Part shown: positions 1,369-16,313 of the stretch, piece by piece | Position numbering within the stretch: position 1 is the stretch's first letter | How the letters are laid out: each line of letters opens with the position of its first letter | From: a virus | Lineage: Duplodnaviria; Heunggongvirae; Uroviricota; Caudoviricetes | Length of the DNA stretch: 16,313 bases | IMG/VR virus record: IMGVR_UViG_2609459861_000002 | Coordinates: 1 to 16,313 of that record | Reading direction: 5' to 3' (one strand) | Notes under the pieces: model-generated | The model's input: the letters and a program-made list of their open reading frames with translations, nothing else | The model's database searches: none | Told to the model about the DNA's origin: nothing | Translations under genes and position numbers: made by a program

Positions 1369-1444
1369 GCCGATATAGCTCAGTTGGTAGAGCAGCGCAT
1401 TCGTAATGCGAAGGTCGGAGGTTCGACTCCTCTTATCGGCACCA
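1369..1444 (+). tRNA. thrW: tRNA-Thr, anticodon CGU
   Basis: Cloverleaf readable by eye: acceptor GCCGATA/TATCGGC, D-arm GCTC..GAGC, anticodon stem GCGCA/TGCGA with loop TTCGTAA (anticodon CGT), T-arm GGAGG-TTCGACT-CCTCT, 3' CCA encoded. Sits directly after proA as thrW does in E. coli. Confidence 0.93.
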
Positions 1445-1458
1445 TTTAAATCAATAAG

Positions 1459-2622
1459 TTACACATCATTAGTACCTTCCTTATTTTTTGACTGGGACAA
1501 ATTTGGGACCGATGGGTTCAGGATCGAGTCTATTTGCCGTGCGTGTTCGGTAAGGTGATTAGGTGCGAGGTGAGCATATCGACGAACCATTTCGATAGAC
1601 TCCCAGCCTCCCATTTCCTGTAACACTGACAACGGGACACCGGCTTGAACCAGCCAACTTGCCCAGGTGTGTCTCAAGTCATGAAATCTGAAATCATCAA
1701 TACCAGCTCGTCTCAGCGCCGCTTTCCAGGCTGTGTTTGCGTCATACCGCATCTTCCTGACTGTTGGCGCTTTCGTTCCGTCTGGTTTGGTACAGCTTTC
1801 CTTGTACACAAATACCCAACGGTGATGATTCCCGATTTGTTTTTTCAATACGCGACATGCAGTATCATTCAGCGCAACGCCAATTGCGCGGTTTGATTTA
1901 CTCTCTTCCGGGTTTATCCATGCCACCCGGCGCTGCATATCTATTTGTTGCCATTCAAGGTTGATGATGTTCGAGCGTCTTAAGCCTGTTGCCAGTGCAA
2001 ATTCAACAACAGACTTTAATGGCTCCGGACATTCATCAATCAGCCTTTGTGCTTCATGGGGCTCCAGCCAGCGGATCCGTTTATTCTTTGGTTGAGGCAC
2101 TTTAATAATTGGTGCCTTATCCAGCATTTTCCATTCACGCTCTGCGGCTCTTAGTAGGGCCTTTATAAATGAAAGATGCGTAGCCTTCGTTGCAACGGAC
2201 GCTGGTTTTGGCGTGTATTCTGGAACAGGTTTCCCTTTTTTTCTGCATGCTTCTGCCCTGAGTTTCCAGTTTTCCTCATGACGCCGGTTCGTCATTTTCT
2301 GCATTGCTGAATAAATTTTTGATTCAGTGATGTCTCTTAGTTGCATCCCTGCGAAATGTTGAAGCCAGAATCCGATCCGGCTTTTGTCATCGTCCAGTGA
2401 TTTCTTATGTGCTTTCTCTTCGAGCCACCTGACACACGCTTCCTCAAACGTCATATCAGGTATTTCACCAAGTTTGCTGACCCGCCATGCTTCAGCCTTT
2501 AGCTTGTCATGGAGCTCTGTCGCCTGCCTTTTGTCCTTTGTTCCAAGAGACTGTTTAAATCTTTTACCGTTCGGCAATGTGAAACTGGCGTACCATATTT
2601 CACTTCTGCGGAAGAGTGACAT
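1459..2622 (-). CDS. int: phage tyrosine integrase (lambdoid Int family)
   Basis: 387-aa ORF beginning [27 protein letters not shown], which I recognise as the IntD/IntF-type prophage integrase of E. coli; C-terminal HDLRHTWAS (HxxR) and RRYAHL (catalytic Tyr region). Stop codon lies 15 nt from the tRNA CCA end. Confidence 0.93.
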
Positions 2623-2849
2623 TTTCTTTCCTCTGTTATGCCATCACCCGCGCTCACCTTGATAGTATGCAGCGGAGACTGAAGCGCCGCAATGCAGGCT
2701 TGTCGCGTTGTGAGGTAAGGAGATTTTGGTTTAGTGGGGTCTTTGCGTGTTGCCTGTAGGCGGCCTGTTCGTATCCAGTTGGTGGCGGTTGGTCTGGATA
2801 TCTTAAGAAACTGACAGGCCTCATCGAGTGTGAGGCTGTATGATTCCAT
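2499..2849 (-). CDS. xis: excisionase / AlpA-type helix-turn-helix protein
   Basis: HTH-like segment [29 protein letters not shown] at 2849 is preceded by GAGG with 5-nt spacing; the longer track ORF starts at an upstream GTG. Lies immediately upstream of int, and its 3' end overlaps the int 5' end by about 120 nt, so one of the two ends is uncertain. Confidence 0.65.
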
Positions 2850-3099
2850 GGTTACCTCTGCTTTTTGAACGCATGTCACGTAACTTCTTAATGTGTTCTG
2901 CCGTTTCGATCTCTTCTGCTATCCGATCTGCATCAGCTTTATTCACAGGTTCAAAGTCATGATTAAAGCGGAACATGCTGGCGATACATGTTCTGCCTTT
3001 TCGGATGTAGTGAACTTTGTTGTGGGTAGAACGCAGGATTTTGCAGGGAGTGCCGTGGTGGTCGACGTACCAGGTGTTAGGAAAAATGATTCTGAACAT
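2821..3099 (-). CDS. hypothetical phage protein (92 aa)
   Basis: ORF with protein-like composition; ATG at 3099 preceded by GAGGT at 5-nt spacing; overlaps the xis start by 29 nt as in compact phage operons. Family not recognised. Confidence 0.5.
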   Translation of the reverse strand: MFRIIFPNTWYVDHHGTPCKILRSTHNKVHYIRKGRTCIASMFRFNHDFEPVNKADADRIAEEIETAEHIKKLRDMRSKSRGNHGIIQPHTR

Positions 3100-3146
3100 T
3101 TTTACACCTCAGTTGGACGATGTTGAAATTTGCTGCTTTGAGGCCA

Positions 3147-3365
3147 TCACAGTCCCCATTGTTTGTTCTTAAGTTCGATCTCCTCCTGGCAACTTGCACA
3201 AGTCCGACAACCCTGAACAGCCAGGCGTCTTCGCTCATCTATCGGATCGCCACACTCACAACAATGAGTTGCGGATACAGTCTGGTAGTTCAGACGACGC
3301 ATTTTTATTGCTGTATTGCGCTGTAATTCTTCGATTTCTGATGCTGAATCAATGATGTCTGCCAT
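3147..3365 (-). CDS. TraR/DksA-family C4 zinc-finger protein
   Basis: 72-aa ORF with CCECGDPIDERRRLAVQGCRTCASC, i.e. CxxC-(17)-CxxC, at the C-terminus; size and motif spacing match phage and plasmid TraR homologues. Confidence 0.8.
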   Translation of the reverse strand: MADIIDSASEIEELQRNTAIKMRRLNYQTVSATHCCECGDPIDERRRLAVQGCRTCASCQEEIELKNKQWGL

Positions 3366-3418
3366 CTTCCATTAATCCCTGAATTGTTGGTTAATACGCT
3401 TGAGGATGAATGCGAACA

Positions 3419-3443
3419 ATAAAAAAGGAGCCTGTAGCTCCCT
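3419..3443 (-). terminator. candidate intrinsic terminator downstream of the 3464-3679 ORF
   Basis: On the minus-strand RNA: stem GGAGC/GCUCC (extendable by a G-U and an A-U pair), loop UACAG, followed by UUUUUUAUUG. Confidence 0.4.
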
Positions 3444-3463
3444 GATGATTTTGCTTTTCATGT

Positions 3464-3679
3464 TCACCGTTCCTTAAAGACGCCGTTTAACATGCCGATC
3501 GCCAGGCTTAAATGAGTCGGTGTGAATCCCATCAGCGTTACCGTTTCGCGGTGCTTCTTTAGTACGCTACGGCAAATGTCATCGACGTTTTTATCCGGAA
3601 ACTGCTGTCTGGCTTTTTTGATTTCAGAATTAGCCTGACGGGCAATGCTGCGAAGGGCGTTTTCGTGCTGAGGTGTCAT
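3464..3679 (-). CDS. hypothetical phage protein (about 71 aa, start uncertain)
   Basis: C-terminal 71 residues from MTPQHENALRSIARQ are protein-like; the upstream in-frame extension to 3778 is Cys/His-rich and less convincing. No strong SD at any candidate start. Confidence 0.4.
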   Translation of the reverse strand: MTPQHENALRSIARQANSEIKKARQQFPDKNVDDICRSVLKKHRETVTLMGFTPTHLSLAIGMLNGVFKER

Positions 3680-3755
3680 TGAACAAGTCCCATGTCGGCA
3701 AGCATAAGCACACAGAATATGAAGCCCGCTGCCAGAAAAATGCATTCCGTGGTTG

Positions 3756-4143: not shown

Positions 4144-4506
4144 GTGAATACCTACAGTATCACATTACCCTGGCCTCCGAGCAATAATCGCTATTACCGC
4201 CATAATCGCGGGCGCACGCACGTCAGTGCAGAGGGGCAGGCATACCGCGATAACGTCGCCCGAATCATTAAAAGCGCAATGCTGGATATCGGCCTGGCTA
4301 TGCCTGTGAAAATCCGCATTGAGTGCCACATGCCGGATCGCCGTCGCCGTGACCTGGATAATCTGCAAAAAGCCGCTTTTGACGCACTCACTAAAGCAGG
4401 TTTCTGGCTGGATGATGCTCAGGTCGTTGATTACCGCGTTGTGAAGATGCCTGTTACCAAAGGTGGGAGGCTGGAACTGACCATCACCGAAATTGGGAAT
4501 GAATGA
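4144..4506 (+). CDS. rusA: crossover junction endodeoxyribonuclease RusA (Holliday junction resolvase)
   Basis: 120-aa [27 protein letters not shown]...; I recognise it as nearly identical to E. coli prophage RusA. GTG start with GAGGGGG upstream. Confidence 0.93.
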
Positions 4507-4643
4507 TGTTTGAGTTTTATATGGCAGAACTTCTTCGCCACCGCTGGGGGCATCTGCGCTTATATCGTTTCCCCGGTTCTGTTTTGACCGATTACCGAAT
4601 ACTGAAGAATTACGCCAAAACCCTGACAGGAGCAGGAGTATGA
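4503..4643 (+). CDS. ylcG: YlcG-like small phage protein (46 aa)
   Basis: Hand translation from the ATG overlapping the rusA stop (ATGA) gives [46 protein letters not shown], matching the small gene that follows rusA in DLP12-type prophages. Below the ORF-track size cutoff. Confidence 0.65.
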
Positions 4644-4728
4644 AGTCAGAGATAACAATCAACTAATACTGTTTTGTTGATTTTTGCTTGTAATTGGCGT
4701 TCTGGTCTGATTTTTGTGGAGTAAGTTG

Positions 4729-5112
4729 ATGCGTGATATTCAGATGGTTCTTGAGCGTTGGGGAGCGTGGGCGGCTAATAATCATGAAGATGTGACCTGG
4801 TCGTCCATTGCCGCCGGTTTTAAGGGATTAATTACTTCAAAAGTAAAATCTCGCCCGCAATGTTGTGACGATGACGCGATGATTATTTGCGGGTGCATGG
4901 CCCGTCTGAAAAAGAACAACAGCGATTTGCACGATTTATTAGTAGATTATTATGTAGTCGGTATGACATTCATGTCACTGGCAGGTAAGCATTGCTGCTC
5001 TGATGGTTATATCGGGAAAAGGTTACAGAAGGCTGAGGGCATAATTGAAGGGATGTTAATGGCATTAGATATCCGGTTAGAGATGGATATCGTTGTTAAT
5101 AACTCTAATTAA
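4729..5112 (+). CDS. late-gene antiterminator Q (Q82/QuuD type)
   Basis: 127 aa from the ATG at 4729 ([22 protein letters not shown]...), with Cys clusters [12 protein letters not shown] and HCC typical of the Q zinc-binding fold; sits between the rusA/ylcG nin remnant and the lysis genes. Confidence 0.85.
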
Positions 5113-5145
5113 TATGCCAATTGTTTACTAAAAATTATTAAAAAT

Positions 5146-5163
5146 GGGGCGTTGAGACGCCCC
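5146..5163 (-). terminator. intrinsic terminator downstream of the porin gene
   Basis: Stem GGGGCG/CGCCCC with 6-nt loop; on the minus strand it is followed by AUUUUUAAUAAUUUUU. The plus-strand side is A-rich, so it is not a plus-strand terminator. Confidence 0.5.
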
Positions 5164-5301
5164 CAAAAATAAAGGGTAATATATAACAGAAGGTTTATAT
5201 AGTTAGAAGCAAGGTTGTGCTTCTAAAGGAAGGGGTTGGGGGGAGCCCTTTATATGGGGGGGAGGCACCGCCCCCCGCAACATATCTTTTTCGTAATCAG
5301 A

Positions 5302-6399
5302 TTAGAACTGGTAAACCAGACCTACAGCAACGATGTCATCAGTGCTTACACCGAGTGCTTTAGTGAAGTCATTTTTGTCAAGCAGGTTGATTTTGTAATC
5401 AACGAAAGTAGACATATTTTTGTTGAAGTAATAGGTTGCACCTACATCAACATATTTGACTAAGTCCTGATCGCCCCATACTCCAAGATCCTTACCTTTA
5501 GATTGCAGGTAAGCAACGGACGGACGCAGACCGAAATCGAACTGATATTGTGCAACAGCTTCGAAGTTTTGGGCTTTATTAGCAACGAAGTGATCAGCAA
5601 ATACAGTCATATTCTGGGTTTCAGAATAGGTAGTGGCCAGGTAAATGTTGTTAGCGTCATATTTCAGACCTGCGGCCCAAACTTCTGCATTTTTACCGGA
5701 AGCAAATACTTCAGGAAGAACTTTCCCTGCATTAACTTGAGTGTCGGTACGATCAGATTTCGCATAAGTTGCACCGATACCGAATCCTTCGTATTCATAG
5801 GTAGCAGAGAAACCGAAGCCATCACCGTTACCTTCAGTGTAGTTATCGAAATCGCTACGATCGTTTTTGCCTTGGTACTGAGCAGCAAAGTTCAGACCAT
5901 CAACCAGACCAAAGAAGTCGTTGTTACGATAGGTTGCAACACCAGTTGCACGTTGAGTCATGAACACGTCGGTTTGAGTCCAAGTGTCACCACCGAATTC
6001 TGGCAGGACGTCAGTCCACGCACCGATGTCGTATGCTACACCGTAGTTACGGCCGTAATCGATGGAGCCGTAGTCACCGAATTTCAGGCCAGCGAAGGCA
6101 AGACGGGTTTTATCTTTGGAGGAACCTTGAGATTCAGCGCGGTTGCCTTTGAATTCATATTCCCACTGACCGAAACCAGTCAGTTGATCGTTGATTTGGG
6201 TTTCACCTTTGAAGCCAAGACGGGCATAAGTAGTATCACCATCATCTGCATCATTAGAGGAGAAGTAGTGCTTAGCATTAACTTTCCCGTACAGATCCAG
6301 CTTGTTACTGTCTTTATTATAAATTTCAGCTGCCTGAGCAGACATCGCCATCAGTACTGATGCAGCTACAGCAGAAATTGCCACTGTTAATTTTTTCAT
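5302..6399 (-). CDS. nmpC: outer-membrane general porin, prophage-encoded (NmpC/Lc/OmpC family)
   Basis: 365-aa ORF with signal peptide [30 protein letters not shown], porin-like Gly/Tyr/Asp-rich beta-barrel composition and C-terminal YQF. I recognise the N-terminal mature sequence as the NmpC/Lc-type phage porin. Intact, with no IS disruption. Confidence 0.93.
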
Positions 6400-6940
6400 C
6401 GTGAGCCCTTTTTTTTGAACTATTATTAAAAAATGATGTCACTGCGCGATAAATATTCATCTAATCAATGTGATTATTTCAAGATGTAAGTTTTGGTTTC
6501 TCGTTTGATTTGTGAAGTAGATCTCTATTTTTATCTGAACTTTTTTCTATCGAATCCTATTCATAGCTCTTGGCTGAATAAAAATAAATCTATTAGCCAA
6601 TTTATATTAACGGCTGTTATTTATAAGTGCTCTATAATTTGAAGATTCAATTTAAATCGGCTAAAAATAACACTGGAAATTATTTGTTAGTTATTTGTTG
6701 AGGTTTTCTTATGTATTTGTGGTGGTGTTTTGAACACTCGGTAGCATTCTCATAAATATCATTCAGTGGTTTACGTACGTAAAAAATTGGTTATGCTGTT
6801 AAGAGTGGTTACTTCGTCACACAGCTTAAACCCGCCGTCGAGCTGGTTTTTCCATTTTTTGAGTCTCGATATTAGCTGATAACTCAATACCTGAGTTATT
6901 CACTGACTCCGAGTCTGTTACGTTTCTGCTTTTTTGCGAT
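6400..6940. promoter_or_regulatory. AT-rich upstream region of the porin gene; may also hold plus-strand late-operon signals
   Basis: About 540 bp of strongly AT-rich non-coding DNA with A/T tracts, of the kind found upstream of enterobacterial porin genes. No specific sites assigned. Confidence 0.3.
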
Positions 6941-6988
6941 ACGTTGTATTCCCTCAATTTACACCCGCTTTGTCTGCGAGGTGGGGTT

Positions 6989-7204
6989 ATGAAATCCATG
7001 GATAAGTTAACAACGGGTGTCGCCTATGGCACCTCAGCAGGTAGTGCCGGTTACTGGTTTTTACAGCTGCTCGATAAAGTCACGCCCTCACAGTGGGCGG
7101 CAATAGGTGTGCTGGGTAGTCTGGTATTTGGCTTGCTGACGTACCTGACAAACCTTTATTTCAAGATTAAAGAAGATAAGCGCAAGGCTGCGAGAGGTGA
7201 ATAA
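6989..7204 (+). CDS. class II holin (phage 21 S-type pinholin) with dual-start motif
   Basis: 71 aa, [26 protein letters not shown]...: two predicted TMDs, Met1-Lys2-Ser3-Met4 dual start, charged C-terminus; GAGGTGGGG SD 2-10 nt upstream. The longer track ORF starts at an upstream TTG. Confidence 0.9.
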
Positions 7205-7701
7205 TGCCTCCATCATTACGAAAAGCAGTTGCTGCTGCTATTGGTGGCGGAGCAATTGCTATAGCATCAGTGTTAATCACTGGCCCAAGTGGTAACGATG
7301 GTCTGGAAGGTGTCAGCTACATACCATACAAAGATATTGTTGGTGTATGGACCGTATGTCACGGGCATACAGGAAAAGACATCATGCTCGGTAAAACGTA
7401 TACCAAAGCAGAATGCAAAGCACTCTTGAATAAAGACCTTGCCACTGTCGCCAGACAAATTAACCCATACATCGAAGTCGATATACCGGAAACAACGCGC
7501 GGCGCTCTTTACTCATTCGTTTACAACGTGGGTGCTGGCAATTTCAGAACATCGACGCTTCTTCGCAAAATAAACCAGGGCGATATCAAAGGCGCATGTG
7601 ATCAGTTACGTCGCTGGACATATGCTGGCGGTAAGCAATGGAAAGGTCTCATGACTCGTCGTGAGATTGAGCGTGAAATCTGTTTGTGGGGTCAGCAATG
7701 A
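7204..7701 (+). CDS. SAR endolysin (T4-lysozyme-fold muramidase, phage 21 R-type)
   Basis: 165 aa; N-terminal Gly/Ala-rich weakly hydrophobic SAR segment [20 protein letters not shown] followed by the lysozyme motif GLEG..Y.D..G..T; start overlaps the holin stop (TAATG). Confidence 0.93.
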
Positions 7702-8159
7702 ACAGAGTAACCGCGATTATCTCCGCTCTGGTTATCTGCATCATCGTCGGCCTGTCATGGGCTGTTAATCATTACCGTGATAACGCCATTACCTACAAAG
7801 CCCAGCGCGACAAAAATGCCAGAGAACTGAAGCTGGCGAACGCGGCAATTACTGACATGCAGATGCGTCAGCGTGATGTTGCTGCGCTCGATGCAAAATA
7901 CACGAAGGAGTTAGCTGATGCGAAAGCTGAAAATGATGCTCTGCGTGATGATGTTGCCGCTGGTCGTCGTCGGTTGCACATCAAAGCAGTCTGTCAGTCA
8001 GTGCGTGAAGCCACCACCGCCTCCGGCGTGGATAATGCAGCCTCCCCCCGACTGGCAGACACCGCTGAACGGGATTATTTCACCCTCAGAGAGAGGCTGA
8101 TCACTATGCAAAAACAACTGGAAGGAACCCAGAAGTATATTAATGAGCAGTGCAGATAG
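7698..8159 (+). CDS. Rz i-spanin
   Basis: ATG at 7698 overlaps the endolysin stop (ATGA); N-terminal [21 protein letters not shown] then a charged coiled-coil-like periplasmic domain; closely resembles lambda Rz. Confidence 0.9.
7918..8100 (+). CDS. Rz1 o-spanin lipoprotein (embedded in Rz, +1 frame)
   Basis: 60-aa ORF wholly inside Rz; lipobox LVVVGC, proline-rich mature region [13 protein letters not shown]. Confidence 0.85.
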
Positions 8160-8190: not shown

Positions 8191-8484
8191 TTATTGTGAG
8201 CAATACACACGCGCTTCCAGCGGAGTATAAATGCCTAAAGTAATAAAACCGAGCAATCCATTTACGAATGTTTGCTGGGTTTCTGTTTTAACAACATTTT
8301 CTGCGCCGCCACAAATTTTGGCTGCATCAACAGTTTTCTCCTGTCCAATTCCCGAAACGAAGAAATGATGGGTGATGGTTTCCTTTGGTGTTACTGCTGT
8401 CGGTTTGTTTCCAACAGTAAACGTCTGTTGAGCACATCCTGTAATAAGCATTGCCAGAGCGGCAGAAAACAACATTTTTTTCAT
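8191..8484 (-). CDS. bor: Bor lipoprotein (serum-resistance-associated moron)
   Basis: 97 aa from MKKMLFSAALAMLITGC (lipobox ITGC); I recognise it as lambda Bor-like. Opposite orientation to the lysis genes, as in lambda. Confidence 0.9.
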   Translation of the reverse strand: MKKMLFSAALAMLITGCAQQTFTVGNKPTAVTPKETITHHFFVSGIGQEKTVDAAKICGGAENVVKTETQQTFVNGLLGFITLGIYTPLEARVYCSQ

Positions 8485-9528: not shown

Positions 9529-10020
9529 ATGGATCATGAGTTGAAAAACCTGGTGCTGAATATTAATCAACTGGCGGCTTTATCTGGTCTGCACCGCCAG
9601 ACTGTCGTGGCAAGACTGAAAAACATTCGTCCCGCTGGTGGACATGACAAACTCAAGCTATACCGGTTGACCGATATTCTGACTGAATTTATGGGGTTAC
9701 CACCGCCGGTTGCTGAGGGCGAAATGGATCCACATGAACGCAAAGCCTGGTATCAGTCTGAACGTGAGCGTCTTAAGTTCGAACAGGAAACGGCACAACT
9801 CATTCCGGCCAGTGATGTCAGACGGGAGTTTGCCATCTGGGCAAAAGCGGTCGTGCAGGTGCTGGAGACATTACCGGATATTCTGGAACGTGACTGCGGC
9901 CTGCAGCCTGCTGCTGTGAGCCGTGTTCAGTCCATTATTGATGATCTGCGCGATCAGATAGCCCTGCGGGTGACCGAAGCAGGTGCGGATGATGAGGAGG
10001 AATTACAGCAGGAGGAGTAA
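9529..10020 (+). CDS. terminase small subunit (Nu1 family)
   Basis: 163-aa ORF with N-terminal HTH-like segment LNINQLAALSGLHRQTVVARLKNI and acidic C-terminus; stop overlaps the start of the large-terminase ORF (TAATG), the standard Nu1-A arrangement. Confidence 0.8.
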   Translation: MDHELKNLVLNINQLAALSGLHRQTVVARLKNIRPAGGHDKLKLYRLTDILTEFMGLPPPVAEGEMDPHERKAWYQSERERLKFEQETAQLIPASDVRREFAIWAKAVVQVLETLPDILERDCGLQPAAVSRVQSIIDDLRDQIALRVTEAGADDEEELQQEE

Positions 10021-11312
10021 TGCTGAATCAGGAAACCGCAAAGGCAGCACGAACCGATTCAGGTTATATCCTTCGCGCACCGAGACGAATGCGGGTTGCT
10101 GATGCCGTTGCTCAGTATATGCGAGTGCCCATGGGGGCCGGGAACTCAGTCCCGTGGGATCCGCTGGTGGCACCGTATGTTCTTGAGCCGATGAACTGCC
10201 TGGCCTCGCGTGAATACGACGCAGTGATATTTGTTGGTCCGGCACGAACCGGCAAGACTATCGGCCTGATTGACGGCTGGGTGATTTACAACGTGATTTG
10301 CGATCCTGCGGATATGCTGATCATTCAGATGACGGAGGAAAAAGCCCGCGAACACTCCAAAAAACGACTTGCCAGAACGTTTCGCGTCAGCCCGGAAGTG
10401 GTCAGTCGCCTGAGTCCGAACAAAAATGACAACAACGTTTATGACAGAACATTCCTTGCTGGCAACTACCTGAAAATCGGCTGGCCGTCAGTCAATATCA
10501 TGTCCTCATCAGATTATAAATGCGTGGCGCTGACGGATTATGACCGTTTTCCGGAAGATATTGATGGCGAGGGGGATGCCTTCTCTCTTGCCTCAAAACG
10601 TACCACCACATTTATGTCCAGTGGTATGACGCTGGTGGAGAGTTCCCCCGGCAGGGATGTGAAGGATGTGAAATGGCGACGGACTTCACCGCATGAGGCT
10701 CCACCAACCACGGGGATACTGTCGCTCTATAACCGTGGCGATCGCCGTCGCTGGTACTGGCCCTGTCCACACTGTGGTGAGTATTTTCAGCCCTGCGGCG
10801 ATGTGGTTGCTGGTTTCCGTGATATTGCCGATCCCGTGCTGGCAAGTGAGGCGGCTTATATTCAGTGTCCTTCCTGTTCAGGACGGATTATGCCTGAACA
10901 AAAACGTGAGCTGAACGGACGTGGGGTCTGGTTGCGGGATGGTGAATCCATCAATGCGGATGGCAGTCGTTATGGTGATCCCCGACGCTCACGTATTGCG
11001 TCATTCTGGATTCCACCCATTATCTTTAACGGAATAGCGTATAGCGATCCGGGAAGTGGTAATAACCCGGGAGGTACAAGATACACGGGTTATGGTTTTG
11101 AAGTTCGCAAAAACGGTGTATTAATCGCATCCAGAGAAACTAAAGGGGCCATTCCCGGTAGCTACAGTGCGGTTATTGATATGCCGAGTGGCAGGGGAAG
11201 CGTCACTCTGGAGTTTAAGGTTTTCCATAAAGGCAATCAGTGGGCAGGTAATATCACCGACTGTACGGTGATTGTGACCAAAAAAGCTGCTTCCGGCATC
11301 AGTATTCGTTGA
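10020..11312 (+). pseudogene. terminase large subunit (gpA family), N-terminal ATPase region only, fused in frame to about 100 unrelated codons
   Basis: Residues 1 to about 330 carry gpA-like landmarks (P-loop VGPARTGKT, CPHCGEYFQ zinc motif, GVWLRDG). Lambda gpA is about 640 aa; here the ORF ends at 430 aa and its last 100 residues do not resemble terminase. A hairpin-plus-T6 terminator and lom follow, which is the position of the J 3' end in lambda. Confidence 0.7.
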
Positions 11313-11381: not shown

Positions 11382-11981
11382 ATGCGTAAACTTTATGCCG
11401 CCATTTTGTCCGCAGCCATTTGTCTGGCCGTATCCGGTGCGCCTGCATGGGCATCTGAACATCAGTCCACGCTGAGCGCGGGGTATCTTCATGCCCGGAC
11501 CAACGTTCCCGGCAGCGATGATCTGAACGGGATTAACGTGAAATACCGTTATGAGTTTACGGACACACTGGGGCTGGTGACGTCATTCAGCTATGCAGGA
11601 GACAAGAATCGCCAGCTGACCCATTACAGCGATACCCGCTGGCATGAAGATTCCGTTCGTAACCGCTGGTTCAGCGTAATGGCGGGGCCGTCTGTGCGCG
11701 TGAATGAATGGTTCAGCGCGTATGCGATGGCGGGTATGGCTTACAGCCGTGTTTCGACTTTTTCCGGGGATTATCTCCGCGTAACTGACAACAAGGGGAA
11801 AACGCATGATGTGCTGACCGGAAGTGATGACGGTCGCCACAGCAACACGTCTCTGGCGTGGGGGGCTGGCGTGCAGTTTAACCCGACCGAATCCGTGGCC
11901 ATTGATATTGCTTATGAAGGCTCCGGCAGTGGCGACTGGCGCACTGACGGTTTCATCGTGGGGGTCGGTTATAAATTCTGA
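11382..11981 (+). CDS. lom: Lom outer-membrane protein (Ail/Lom/PagC family)
   Basis: 199 aa with signal peptide ending AWA/SEH and C-terminal IDIAYEGSGSGDWRTDGFIVGVGYKF, which I recall as identical to the lambda Lom C-terminus. Confidence 0.92.
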   Translation: MRKLYAAILSAAICLAVSGAPAWASEHQSTLSAGYLHARTNVPGSDDLNGINVKYRYEFTDTLGLVTSFSYAGDKNRQLTHYSDTRWHEDSVRNRWFSVMAGPSVRVNEWFSAYAMAGMAYSRVSTFSGDYLRVTDNKGKTHDVLTGSDDGRHSNTSLAWGAGVQFNPTESVAIDIAYEGSGSGDWRTDGFIVGVGYKF

Positions 11982-12034: not shown

Positions 12035-12045
12035 GTGGGGGGAAT

Positions 12046-15000
12046 ATGGCAGTAAAGATTTCAGGTGTACTGAAAGACGGCGCAGGTAAACCGGTACAGA
12101 ACTGCACAATCCAGCTGAAAGCAAAACGTAACAGCACCACGGTGGTGGCGAACACGGTGGCCTCAGAAAATCCGGATGAAGCCGGGCGTTACAGCATGGA
12201 CGTTGAGTACGGTCAGTACAGCGTTATTCTGTTGGTGGAAGGCTTCCCGCCATCGCATGCCGGGACCATCACCGTGTATGAAGACTCACAACCGGGTACG
12301 CTGAATGATTTTCTCGGTGCCATGACGGAGGATGATGTCCATCCGGAGGCACTGCGCCGCTTTGAACTGATGGTGGAAGAGGTGGCGCGTAACGCGTCCG
12401 CAGTGGCGCAGAACACAGCAGCCGCGAAGAAGTCAGCCAGCGATGCCGGCACATCAGCCCGTGAGGCGGCAACCCGTGCAACTGATGCTGCAGGCTCAGC
12501 ACGTGCAGCCAGCACGTCAGCCGGACAGGCCGCTTCGTCGGCTCAGTCAGCGTCTTCCAGCGCAGGAACGGCATCAACAAAGGCCACTGAAGCATCAAAA
12601 AGTGCTGCCGCTGCAGAGTCTTCAAAAAGCGCGGCAGCCACCAGTGCCGGTGCAGCGAAAACGTCAGAAACGAATGCCGCAGCATCACAAAAATCTGCGG
12701 CCACTTCTGCATCCACCGCGACCACGAAAGCGTCAGAAGCTGCCACCTCAGCCCGGGATGCGTCGGCTTCAAAAGTGGCGGCAAAATCATCAGAAACGAG
12801 CGCAGCCTCGAGCGCCGGCAGTGCAGCTTCCTCGGCAACGGCGGCAGGAAATTCCGCGAAGGCCGCAAAAACGTCTGAGATGAATGCGGATAACAGCGCA
12901 CAGGCGGCAGCAGACTCACAAACTGCATCGGCAAATTCCGCGACAGCAGCCAAAAAATCAGAAACCAACGCGAAAAATAGTGAGTCAGCAGCAAAGGTCA
13001 GCGAAACCAACGCTAAAGCGTCAGAGAACAAGGCGAAAGAATATCTCGACAAGGTCGGGGGACTCGTCAGCCCGATGACGCAATACGATTGGCCCGTTGT
13101 TACTGGTAATGAGTCTTTTTACATAAAGATCGCGAAACTTTCCGATCCCGGAAGCAACAATTGCCATGTAACGCTAATGGTTACTAACGGCGGTGACTAC
13201 AGCTCCCCTTACGGAAACATTGACTTTATCGAGATCTCGGCGCGCGGTCTGCCTTCTTCGCTTACTGCTGATAATGTATCTCGTTACCTGAGTATACGCC
13301 GTTTAGGGCCAACCGGGCTAATCAATAGCATGCAAATGCGTTACGGCCTGGTTAAAGATGATGGCTTTATTGAGGTTTGGGCCTTCCAGCGTGCATTTAT
13401 CAACGGCGCAAAGGTTGCGGTACTGGCGCAGACGGCACGCACGGAATTATACATTCCAGACGGATTTGTTAAGCAAACCGCCGCGCCTTCTGGATATGTT
13501 GAAAGCCCCGTTGTAAGGATTTACGACCAGTTAAACAAGCCGACTAAAGCAGATTTGGGCCTTTCTAATGCTATGCTTACAGGCGCTTTTGGTCTTGGCG
13601 GTAGCGGTCTTGTTTTGGATGGTAAAATGACCGATAAGGAACTACTACAAGAGCTAAGGGCGAAAGGTGGGTGTTTCTGGAGGTCAGGAAAACCAACAGG
13701 TAGCGAATCAACAATTTTCAGCCACGGTTCTGGTATATTCTCGCGGTGCGGCGATACGTGGTCAGCTATTAATATCGATTACGAAAGCGGTAGAGTAAAG
13801 ATTTACTCTAGTAACGATAATAGACTCAACAATGGTACTTTTAACATAAATGAGCTATACGGAACCAAATACAAGCCGTCGAAATCGGATGTTGGACTTG
13901 GTAACGTAACTAACGATGCGCAGGTGAAAAAATCCGGCGACATTATGTCAGGTGATCTGTCGATCACTAAAGCAACACCTTCACTATACCTGCGTTCAAA
14001 AAGTGGAACCGCCCATGTATGGTTCCAAAATGAGGATCAGTCGGAACGCGGCGTTATTTTTGCGCCTACAAATACTGATACGCTTGGCGAAGTTCACATC
14101 AGGGCTAAAAACGCAAAAGGTCAATCAAGTGGTGATTTTATTGTTCGTCACGACGGGATGGTTGAAGCCCGTGATCTCACATTAGCGGGTAAAACTAAAG
14201 GCGCAAAAGCAGAATTTGCAAACACAAGCACTAGCTCCGATGATACTACGGTAAGCATAAAAGGATCTCAGCATACTCCTCTGGTTTTAACGCGCAACAA
14301 CACAATTAAAAATTTATCCATTGGGTTTAAGGTTGATGACGTTGACCAAAAATATCTCGGCATATACGGTGACGGTGATTTGTATTTTGGTGGTTATTCT
14401 GACCACACAAAAAACAGCAAAGTAATTACACAAGCAATACTCGATAGCGGGGTAACGGTAGGCGGCAAAACAACATTTTCTGACCTTGCCACATTTAACG
14501 CAGGTATGTCTGGGCCTATCGAGCCGGAAGCCATTGAAGGCATGACTATCGATCTTAATGACCTTATCATTAAGTTCACGGATAAAGGTTCAGTTAAATA
14601 CTATCACTGCAAAACTGCCGGAGGCGGTTCGAATATTACCAATAAGCCTGACGGCGTAGGCGGCAACTTTTTGCTTCGTGTAGAGTCAATTCGTAAGGTT
14701 AGTGATTCAGATTATATAAACATGCAAACGCTGATTAGCGGCGACAAAGGACGCGTGCATGTTCGTTTTGTTACTAATGGTAATTGGACAGCATGGAGCG
14801 AGCATGTTGTTTCAGGATGGAATCAGGATGTGACCGTCAGGTCGTTAACCTCGACGACTCCATCAAAATTAGGCGGCGGGCGTGTTGATGTGCTGGGGAG
14901 TACGTCAGATTACAGTAGTATGAATTGTGCTGTGCGCGGTGTTGATAGCACTGGAACCAATTCGGCGTGGTCAGTAGGTACATCGAAAAACACGGGAAAA

Positions 15001-15804
15001 ATGTTGTGCCTTAAAAACCACAGAAGCAGCGCTCAAGTGCTGTTAAATGGCGATGATGGCGCGGTGCAACTACTAAGCGGTACTGTCAACGGTGCTACAG
15101 CACAGGCGCTAACCATCAACAAAGATGAGGTTAACTCAACTGCTGATTTAGTAATTAGAAAACAGTCAGGGACTGGCAATCGTTTTGTTTTAAAGAACGC
15201 AGGTAATGCAGAACTACCGTTTAACATCAGTGTATGGGGTTCAAGTGATCGACAAAACGTTTTTGAGGTTGGAACGTCTGCTGCGTATCTGTTTTATGCG
15301 CAAAGAACGCCAGCAGGCCAGTTGTTTGATGTAAATGGCGCTATTAATTGCACAACGCTGAATCAGTCATCAGACCGCGACCTTAAAGACGATATTCTCG
15401 TTATCAGCGACGCGACGAAAGCAATCCGCAAAATGAACGGGTACACCTACACGCTCAAGGAAAACGGCCTTCCTTATGCTGGCGTTATTGCACAGGAAGT
15501 AATGGAGGCGCTACCGGAAGCCGTAGGATCGTTTACTCGTTACGGTGAAGAATTGCAGGGTCCGACCATTGATGGCAACGAGCTACGCGAAGAAACGCGT
15601 TACCTCAATGTTGATTATGCGGCGGTGACTGGTTTACTTGTCCAGGTCGCCCGTGAAACAGATGATCGCGTTACCGCGCTGGAAGAGGAAAACACAACGC
15701 TACGTCAAAATCTGGCAACAGCAGACACCCGGATCAGCACTCTGGAAAATCAGGTAAGCGAACTGGTTGCACTTGTCCGGCAGTTAACAGGAAGCGAACA
15801 TTGA
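12046..15804 (+). CDS. stf: mosaic side tail fibre: lambda Stf-like N-terminus, divergent central domain, C-terminal intramolecular chaperone (peptidase S74-like) domain
   Basis: 1252-aa ORF. N-terminus MAVKISGVLKDGAGKPVQNCTIQLKA... is near-identical to lambda Stf as I recall it, followed by an Ala/Ser/Thr/Lys-rich repetitive shaft. Central region, from about residue 337, is unrelated. C-terminal 143 aa begin SS/DRDLK (Ser and Lys at i+5) and end in a heptad-like coiled coil, as in self-cleaving chaperone domains of endosialidase and T5 pb1-type fibres. Confidence 0.9.
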   Translation: MAVKISGVLKDGAGKPVQNCTIQLKAKRNSTTVVANTVASENPDEAGRYSMDVEYGQYSVILLVEGFPPSHAGTITVYEDSQPGTLNDFLGAMTEDDVHPEALRRFELMVEEVARNASAVAQNTAAAKKSASDAGTSAREAATRATDAAGSARAASTSAGQAASSAQSASSSAGTASTKATEASKSAAAAESSKSAAATSAGAAKTSETNAAASQKSAATSASTATTKASEAATSARDASASKVAAKSSETSAASSAGSAASSATAAGNSAKAAKTSEMNADNSAQAAADSQTASANSATAAKKSETNAKNSESAAKVSETNAKASENKAKEYLDKVGGLVSPMTQYDWPVVTGNESFYIKIAKLSDPGSNNCHVTLMVTNGGDYSSPYGNIDFIEISARGLPSSLTADNVSRYLSIRRLGPTGLINSMQMRYGLVKDDGFIEVWAFQRAFINGAKVAVLAQTARTELYIPDGFVKQTAAPSGYVESPVVRIYDQLNKPTKADLGLSNAMLTGAFGLGGSGLVLDGKMTDKELLQELRAKGGCFWRSGKPTGSESTIFSHGSGIFSRCGDTWSAINIDYESGRVKIYSSNDNRLNNGTFNINELYGTKYKPSKSDVGLGNVTNDAQVKKSGDIMSGDLSITKATPSLYLRSKSGTAHVWFQNEDQSERGVIFAPTNTDTLGEVHIRAKNAKGQSSGDFIVRHDGMVEARDLTLAGKTKGAKAEFANTSTSSDDTTVSIKGSQHTPLVLTRNNTIKNLSIGFKVDDVDQKYLGIYGDGDLYFGGYSDHTKNSKVITQAILDSGVTVGGKTTFSDLATFNAGMSGPIEPEAIEGMTIDLNDLIIKFTDKGSVKYYHCKTAGGGSNITNKPDGVGGNFLLRVESIRKVSDSDYINMQTLISGDKGRVHVRFVTNGNWTAWSEHVVSGWNQDVTVRSLTSTTPSKLGGGRVDVLGSTSDYSSMNCAVRGVDSTGTNSAWSVGTSKNTGKMLCLKNHRSSAQVLLNGDDGAVQLLSGTVNGATAQALTINKDEVNSTADLVIRKQSGTGNRFVLKNAGNAELPFNISVWGSSDRQNVFEVGTSAAYLFYAQRTPAGQLFDVNGAINCTTLNQSSDRDLKDDILVISDATKAIRKMNGYTYTLKENGLPYAGVIAQEVMEALPEAVGSFTRYGEELQGPTIDGNELREETRYLNVDYAAVTGLLVQVARETDDRVTALEEENTTLRQNLATADTRISTLENQVSELVALVRQLTGSEH
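12400..13050 (+). repeat. degenerate tandem coding repeats (Ala/Ser/Thr/Lys-rich shaft of the tail fibre)
   Basis: Recurring motifs KTSETNA, KSSETSA, KTSEMNA, KKSETNA, KVSETNA in the translation; GC-rich, and it generates long spurious ORFs in other frames and on the opposite strand. Confidence 0.6.
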
Positions 15805-16054: not shown

Positions 16055-16313
16055 GGTGATGCTGCCAACTTACTGATTTAGTGTATGATGGTGTTTTTGA
16101 GGTGCTCCAGTGGCTTCTGTTTCTATCAGCTGTCCCTCCTGTTCAGCTACTGACGGGGTGGTGCGTAACGGCAAAAGCACCGCCGGACATCAGCGCTATC
16201 TCTGCTCTCACTGCCGTAAAACATGGCAACTGCAGTTCACTTACACCGCTTCTCAACCCGGTACGCACCAGAAAATCATTGATATGGCCATGAATGGCGT
16301 TGGATGCCGGGCA
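16055..16313 (+). mobile_element. IS1 insertion sequence, left end (partial, runs off the window)
   Basis: From GGTGATGCTGCCAACTTACTGAT (the IS1 terminal inverted repeat) onward the sequence matches IS1 as I remember it, through the insA 5' region. Confidence 0.92.
16110..16313 (+). CDS. insA: IS1 InsA (partial, 5' portion)
   Basis: GTG start at 16110; hand translation gives [68 protein letters not shown], the InsA N-terminus. Missed by the ORF track because it has no stop inside the window. Confidence 0.88.

Follow-up and report, generated by a model that had tools for sequence, protein, structure and literature searches.

The window analysed here is a 16,313 nt stretch of DNA that is 100% identical over 16,294 nt to contig JNQH01000028.1 of the deposited assembly GCA_000704205.1. 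It opens with proA (1–1254) and the tRNA-Thr(CGT) gene thrW (1369–1444), followed by a tyrosine integrase gene (1459–2622, minus strand), a few small early-left genes on the same strand (about 2500–3680), rusA (4144–4506) and ylcG (about 4503–4643). The next gene (4729–5112, plus strand) codes for a 127 aa late-gene antiterminator Q of the QuuD/Q933W type (Pfam PF06530, E = 3.5e-53); its product shares 78% amino acid identity with the Q protein of phage 933W, from which it diverges after residue 120, and has a distant match to the solved Q21 structure. A porin gene on the minus strand (5302–6399) then lies between Q and the holin gene in the opposite orientation, as the initial annotation had it. 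The lysis cassette S/R/Rz (6989–8159, plus strand) consists of a P21-type holin gene S (6989–7204, with a second start at 6998; Pfam P21 holin S), a SAR endolysin gene R (7204–7701; a lysozyme match and a gene call with Phage_lysozyme) and Rz (7698–8159; a gene call with Phage_lysis), an assignment that agrees with the annotated homologous regions of 434B and K-12. Further genes are bor/iss (8191–8484, minus strand), a gene for a DUF1441 protein (9529–10020), a gene in which a terminase ATPase domain is fused to the C-terminal domain of the tail-tip protein J (10020–11312), lom (11382–11981), a gene for a 1252 aa tail fibre (12046–15804) and an IS1 InsA fragment (16081–16293). Repressor, N, O and P genes are absent from the window, and deletion has removed the head and tail genes; these losses mark the host element as a cryptic remnant, and from its gene content we class it as a defective lambdoid prophage at thrW, resembling DLP12.

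The porin gene, lc/nmpC, has 365 codons, beginning with ATG and ending at a stop codon at 5302–5304, and its translation contains neither frameshifts nor internal stops. The first 23 residues form a signal peptide (6331–6399, minus strand), with a boundary taken from the record of phage PA-2, where the same 23 codons are marked, and from the position at which mature OmpC begins to align; the mature protein is encoded by 5305–6330 (minus strand). The product matches Pfam Porin_1 (PF00267) over the whole profile (1–337 of 337) with an E value of 4.7e-157 and 523 bits relative to a cut-off of 23.7, and also passes the cut-off of the NCBIfam porin OmpC subfamily (529.8 bits; cut-off 484). Residues 24–365 align end to end with residues 1–343 of mature OmpC (2xe2_A; E = 4e-137), the loop-3 motif PEFGGD occupies residues 133–138, as is also seen in the OmpC structure alignment, and the C-terminus is YQF, with an aromatic Phe as last residue. 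The proposal of a complete gene with a signal peptide and a C-terminal Phe is thus borne out.

Comparison with named porins leads to a specific identity for this gene. The 365-residue Lc protein of PA-2 aligns with the window porin without gaps and is identical at 361 of 365 positions, so that realignment to the relative suggested for comparison uncovered neither a frameshift nor a premature stop. Up to the IS5 site, the NmpC protein of K-12 and 434B matches the window porin at every one of its first 347 residues (100%), and the K-12 copy is indeed split by an insertion sequence, IS5, as had been claimed. In database sources the identical protein carries the names 'outer membrane porin protein LC' and 'NmpC precursor'. 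On the strength of these alignments we identify the window porin as intact Lc/NmpC, long known as the lysogenic-conversion porin of lambdoid phages, PA-2 and DLP12 (qsr') among them.

Downstream of the porin gene, a terminator scan locates an intrinsic terminator of the porin transcript (5139–5163, minus strand), in which a stem at 5163–5146 is followed by a U-run. Its fold has a predicted energy of −13.9 kcal/mol and a z score of −3.7, and its stem arms are invariant in six other alleles, in which variation is confined to loop bases; the downstream terminator noted initially is therefore present. Between the stop codon and this terminator is a 3'UTR of about 162 nt (5139–5301, minus strand) that, leaving aside a patch of substitutions described below, is nearly invariant across the same six alleles even though their coding sequences differ by up to about 10%. 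The common allele of the 3'UTR folds into four hairpins plus the terminator, and the window version is 94.9% identical to that of K-12 and about 2500 other genomes. The regulatory RNA ipeX is 167 nt long, derives from DLP12, is produced within the porin transcript and acts as a repressor of OmpC and OmpF (PMC12197685, PMC5069750). By its location and similarity, the stretch of about 162 nt corresponds to this known RNA. Rfam searches of the whole window at gathering thresholds returned tRNA-Thr only, and at permissive E-values over 4600–7300 gave matches at chance level only; ipeX and the pR' leader RNA are not represented in that collection.

The 3'UTR contains the one place where this copy departs from that of E. 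coli P470. Across 4599–7748 the window and E. coli P470 are identical other than at 10 substitutions within 41 nt (5233–5273, no strand assigned), a cluster unique to this assembly that falls in hairpins 1 and 2; on the minus strand the common allele reads …GGGAGGCGTTGCCTCCCCAACATATAAGTGGCTCCCTCAAGCCAC… at this position. A true strain-specific allele that alters ipeX would be one explanation, and it has in its favour that the deposited assembly itself, 100% identical to the window, has the patch, and that one hairpin 2 change is compensatory, replacing T-A with G-C. We regard this explanation as very unlikely. No further difference from P470 is found in 3.1 kb, and no donor allele was recovered from any collection searched: the patch allele is absent from 2502 E. 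coli genomes, where the best identity is 94.9%, it is not found among phage and viral records, and no exact match turned up in IMG/VR, JGI metagenomes or GTDB species representatives. Moreover, the Logan assembly of SRR1186800, which has this defective prophage, unique terminase::J fusion included, carries the common 3'UTR allele; over 16,063 nt it is identical to the window apart from the 10 patch positions and position 12041 (a T-to-G change within a G-run that follows a hairpin). Eight of the 10 patch changes create G or C, as does the change at 12041, such that the window has G or C at nine of the 11 differing positions, all of which lie in or beside GC-rich inverted repeats. The predicted stability of the 3'UTR also falls by 14 kcal/mol, from −63.4 kcal/mol for the common allele to −49.1 kcal/mol with the patch.

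We conclude from these assemblies, assuming the identity of the SRR1186800 isolate, that the patch is probably a consensus error in the deposited assembly, and the cluster in the deposited sequence should not be taken at face value in comparisons of ipeX alleles. Should the patch prove genuine, it could impair ipeX function in this strain. Two other origins were considered. A diversity-generating retroelement was rejected because the changes lack adenine specificity (five are from T, three from A and two from C on the plus strand), and gene conversion from another allele was set aside because the exact patch searches were empty and no closer allele was present in the 2502 E. coli genomes or in phage records.

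On the 5' side of the porin gene, homology to K-12 and PA-2 identifies a promoter region, PnmpC, spanning −199 to −1 relative to the ATG (6400–6598, minus strand). These 199 nt differ from K-12 by two substitutions and one 1-nt indel (3 of 199 positions), and from PA-2 by two substitutions. A proximal CRP site (6508–6528, minus strand), annotated in the PA-2 record J02580 at 1363–1383, is identical in the window, PA-2, K-12 and SCU-118. In K-12, PnmpC is an active sigma-70 promoter with a start mapped by 5' RACE, and its deletion abolishes nmpC-driven transcription; CRP is reported to activate it, with OmpR, IHF and MprA acting as repressors (PMC11677980). A consensus promoter scan gave no strong match and missed both PnmpC and the late promoter pR' of the window (8 of 12 matches), and both assignments thus rest on homology. 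On this basis, the porin is likely to have its own promoter, near-identical to the active K-12 PnmpC.

The base composition of this region is unusual, although not to the full extent first described. The spacer 6400–6768 (369 nt, no strand) has a GC content of 29.0%, and the lowest-GC stretch of that length anywhere in the window begins within it, at 6409 (27.9%, compared with a window mean of 48.0% and a standard deviation of 5.7). The coding sequence of the porin, at 44.3% GC, is not AT-richer than that of Q (42.7%; S has 47.7% and R 46.6%) and lies at the 20th percentile of windows of the same length. The windowed GC calculation recommended as a check thus singles out the spacer and leaves aside the gene, where the initial annotation had described both as AT-richer than the flanking phage genes. 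Similarly, of the AT-rich upstream region of 540 bp attributed to the porin, 6400–6768 stands, and about 90 bp appear instead to belong to the late control region of the phage, since 6769–6860 corresponds to pR'/tR' on the other strand.

The late promoter block (6770–6860, plus strand) was recognized by homology to the annotated pR' and tR' of 933W. Window positions 6769–6851 match the pR'/tR' segment of Stx phages at 76–77% identity over 82 nt, with E values of 4e-7 to 5e-6 in a search of 2.3 Gb. The block contains a −35 element TTTACG (6770–6775), a −10 element TATGCT (6792–6797), a predicted start near 6804, a conserved initial transcribed region (6800–6826) and a hairpin (6830–6847) with T-runs extending to 6860, all on the plus strand. 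The window, K-12, 933W and SfII have in common a core composed of the −35 TTTACG, a 16-nt spacer, a −10 and a hairpin with a T-run, within which the stretch TAAGAGTGGTTAC.T.G.CAC.CAG is largely conserved; the −10 is weaker in the window (TATGCT, as compared with TATCAT in 933W), and the window hairpin has a mismatch. The distance from this promoter to a second, strong terminator downstream of it is 258 nt in 933W, and the mapped StxS transcript of the Sakai Stx phages, which runs from pR' to tR', is 258 nt long (PMC7547250); this agreement between promoter-terminator distance and transcript length supports the pR' assignment. We therefore interpret 6770–6860, by homology, as the late promoter region of the 933W Q family.

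The location of pR' relative to the porin gene determines how the late operon and the porin gene might interact. Under the lambda paradigm, late transcription would start just after Q and read antisense through the porin gene, causing convergent interference between porin and lysis expression; besides matching lambda, such an arrangement could draw on the hairpins at 5206–5290, which fold on the plus strand too, one of them being followed by CTTTTT. The sequence between Q and the porin gene nonetheless makes this highly improbable, as 5113–5300 contains no promoter-like site, and the end of Q retains only a short −35-like remnant without a −10. In 933W, the −35 of pR' overlaps the last codons of Q, and in the window the homologous parts are 1.66 kb apart, and the only sequence homologous to pR' of 933W and its initial transcribed region is at 6770–6860; it was on account of this homology that we dropped a placement of pR' right after Q with late transcripts crossing the porin gene antisense. 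Phage SfII has the same order of Q, antisense cargo, pR' block and S, with two hypothetical genes as its cargo. The order we propose is therefore Q, cassette (terminator, ipeX, porin and PnmpC), pR' and S, which puts the cassette between Q and pR' and outside the late transcription unit. With pR' downstream of the cassette, late transcription is expected to begin near 6804, with no need to pass through the porin gene. The DLP12 segment comprising Q, the late promoter and the lysis genes is also present in phage 434B, which is viable (PMC9119081).

A second CRP site of lc, the 'distal' site of the 1986 PA-2 record, corresponds to window positions 6804–6824 and coincides with pR' +1 to +21, a segment that is mostly conserved in K-12, 933W and SfII. 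This raises the idea, unlikely as it is, that the porin promoter and pR' are halves of a single divergent control region. Were CRP or some other factor to bind 6804–6824, nutrient state would act on porin expression and on Q loading at a single site, and the short pR' RNA and lysis could be affected too.

The arrangement of the cassette is that of a moron, a separately transcribed unit inserted where related phages have neighbouring genes, here antisense between Q and the lysis cassette, and the integrity of the gene, its own terminator and its position all support this part of the initial annotation. The segments flanking the cassette are contiguous in a related phage, the overlap of pR' with the end of Q in 933W standing against their 1.66 kb separation in the window. 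A base composition unlike that of neighbouring phage genes, a common but not obligatory trait of morons, is not seen in the porin coding sequence. Taken together, we consider with high confidence that the locus is an intact, self-contained lc/nmpC moron with a probable promoter of its own, an ipeX 3'UTR and a terminator, lying antisense between Q and pR'.

How this moron might act can be proposed from its parts. The porin would be transcribed from its own sigma-70 promoter, with its CRP site in the 29%-GC spacer, and would be under CRP control, while the transcript would end in the structured 3'UTR of about 162 nt (ipeX) and the intrinsic terminator. With the cassette antisense between Q and pR', the target promoter of Q, porin expression would be independent of the late operon and uncrossed by late transcription. 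The 365-aa precursor would be exported and would assemble into trimers of a 16-strand general porin, giving the cell an extra OmpC-like channel, and the ipeX part of the transcript would, as judged from the published ipeX work, lower both OmpC and OmpF. Expression in this strain, pore activity and repression of OmpC are each expected by analogy with published near-identical sequences. The change in OmpC and OmpF would in turn alter permeability, as well as which receptors phages and colicins find on the cell. OmpC is the receptor of PA-2, and replacement of OmpC by Lc protects lysogens from superinfection; PA-2 lysogens reportedly make Lc, as described in work by Schnaitman in the 1980s. The proposed effects on permeability and receptors agree with the published work on Lc, NmpC and ipeX. 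When expressed, Lc/NmpC is an added diffusion channel that, with its 3'UTR RNA, can replace OmpC and OmpF, and such a replacement bears on antibiotic entry and on sensitivity to phages and colicins.

An alternative is that the porin is intact but quiescent, held off by nucleoid-associated proteins or by repressors (H-NS, OmpR or IHF), and has no effect on the envelope under ordinary conditions. The promoter lies within the most AT-rich DNA of the window, and a promoter region of 29% GC is of a type that H-NS silences. Repression by OmpR, IHF and MprA is published (PMC11677980), and nmpC is called 'quiescent' in E. coli B, at least in the title of Prilipov et al. 1998. Against this, the only ins5A-containing transcript that could be detected in K-12, grown in glycerol minimal medium, comes from the near-identical promoter (PMC11677980), expression of the sRNA IpeX is detected in K-12, and the identical protein bears the porin name Lc in database sources. 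We consider a silent porin rather unlikely and favour the interpretation that the cassette is expressed from PnmpC.

The cassette is widely distributed. The 1.83 kb segment 5113–6943 is present in one place over at least 80% of its length in 2465 of 5426 complete E. coli genomes (about 45%), 36 phage records contain most of the 2.7-kb stretch 4600–7300, and clusters of the full-length porin protein have hundreds to thousands of members. Broken copies occur in laboratory lineages, with IS5 in K-12 and IS1 in B REL606. The Lc/NmpC porin gene is therefore already known and very common in E. coli, and its presence here is a real but ordinary finding; the consequences of its expression were already known in the 1980s, and with the gene so frequent among complete E. 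coli genomes, nothing new biologically comes from this copy.

Of the known systems, the lc locus of PA-2 (GenBank J02580) is the closest. It has the same orientation relative to the lysis genes and the same 3'UTR and terminator, and the upstream regions differ at 9 of 589 positions. The proteins differ by R99H, Q149G, A151T and V154F (window versus PA-2), the 10-nt patch in the 3'UTR is found in the window only, and PA-2 is an active phage whereas the window element is a defective prophage. DLP12 (qsr') of K-12 shares the gene order rusA, ylcG, quuD, nmpC, essD, rrrD, rzpD and bor, but its nmpC gene is interrupted by IS5 after codon 346 where the window copy is uninterrupted, its S leader has 16 nt fewer, and it is located at argU rather than thrW.

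More distant relatives share either the protein family or the regulatory setting. The nearest named chromosomal relatives are the OmpD porins of Salmonella and Citrobacter, which belong to the same family with about 78% amino acid identity over the full length; OmpD is named, by description, as a chromosomal porin, whereas the window porin is phage-borne. OmpC (2xe2, 2j1n) aligns over its full length and has the same PEFGGD constriction-loop motif and terminal YQF, but gaps in the alignment indicate external loops that are shorter or different in the window porin, and the promoters differ. The Stx phages 933W and Sakai Sp5 share the Q family (78%), pR' with its initial transcribed region, and cargo beside the late control region, and only the first roughly 50 nt of the 258-nt StxS leader of 933W have a counterpart in the window. 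The two kinds of cargo are placed differently, however: stx lies downstream of pR'/tR' in the sense orientation and is Q-dependent, whereas the porin gene lies upstream of pR', antisense, with what appears to be a promoter of its own.

The region at 6770–6860 (+) is homologous to phage 933W and comprises a counterpart of its late promoter pR', the initial transcribed region and the first hairpin; the porin cassette is therefore placed between Q (4729–5112) and pR'. The terminated product of this promoter would be a short RNA of about 48 nt, a relative of the 5'-terminal part of the StxS precursor (StxS is the pR'-to-tR' transcript mapped in the Sakai Stx phages). The pR' hairpin contains a C-T mismatch that is also present in PA-2 and in E. 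coli P470, but is absent in K-12. Within the same block, positions +1 to +21 of pR', a segment mostly conserved in K-12, 933W, and SfII, coincide with what the PA-2 record of 1986 labels the 'distal CRP site' (6804–6824 in the window); as a putative CRP site, it (TGTGA-N6-AACCA) matches the consensus only weakly. At the other end of the cassette, the left junction just past Q (5119–5135; CAATTGTTTAC-TAAAAAT) is similar to the start of the pR' block (6765–6787; CAGTGGTTTACGTACGTAAAAAAT), and this likeness may be a short duplication remaining from the insertion, or may reflect chance similarity in AT-rich DNA.

The porin itself (5302–6399, minus strand) differs from the 1986 sequence of PA-2 Lc at four residues (99, 149, 151, and 154), three of which lie within six residues, and these clustered differences may be errors in the old PA-2 sequence rather than real variation. 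Another cluster is found in the porin 3' UTR, where 10 substitutions fall within 41 nt (5233–5273), inside the hairpins of the regulatory RNA ipeX. These are exclusive to the assembly containing the window, and most of them create runs of G or C; we found none of them in another assembly that carries this prophage (Logan, SRR1186800), nor in any collection searched. The cluster is probably an assembly error. The sole further difference between the two assemblies, a G at position 12041 of the window where the Logan assembly has T, is of the same character. It is located in a G-run that directly follows the terminator hairpin of lom, 5 nt upstream of the tail-fibre start codon.

The integration site of the prophage is thrW (tRNA-Thr CGT), which adjoins proA. 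Between thrW and rusA (1369–3700), apart from a few small genes, the gene calls include only an integrase and an excisionase-like HTH protein, and cI, cro, N, O, and P were not found among them, such that Q is left without an obvious early promoter. In a 430-aa ORF at 10020–11312 (+), the ATPase domain of gpA, the large subunit of terminase, is joined to the C-terminal receptor-binding domain of the tail-tip protein J, indicating that a single deletion took out all of the head and most of the tail genes; an exact match to this fusion protein was found on two contigs of the public collection and on no others. Three other lysogenic-conversion or surface genes code for a Bor/Iss lipoprotein (8191–8484, −), the outer-membrane protein Lom (11382–11981, +), and a tail fibre of 1252 aa whose C-terminus is an S74 chaperone-peptidase domain (12046–15804, +). 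An IS1 InsA fragment (16081–16293, +) lies at the end of the window.

E. coli WCHEC115106 carries an unannotated 370-bp fragment (NZ_CP043334.1, 1952482–1952847) with 83% identity to window positions 6359–6730, which cover the promoter region and the 5' end of the porin gene. It adjoins emrE-ybcL-ybcM, near fliE and yedK, and is what is left of a DLP12-like element that lacks the porin. In phage SfII (NC_021857.1, 35581–37195) the slot between Q and a pR'-like block is filled differently, by two antisense hypothetical genes, the larger of which (340 aa) gave no Pfam match, in place of the antisense porin.
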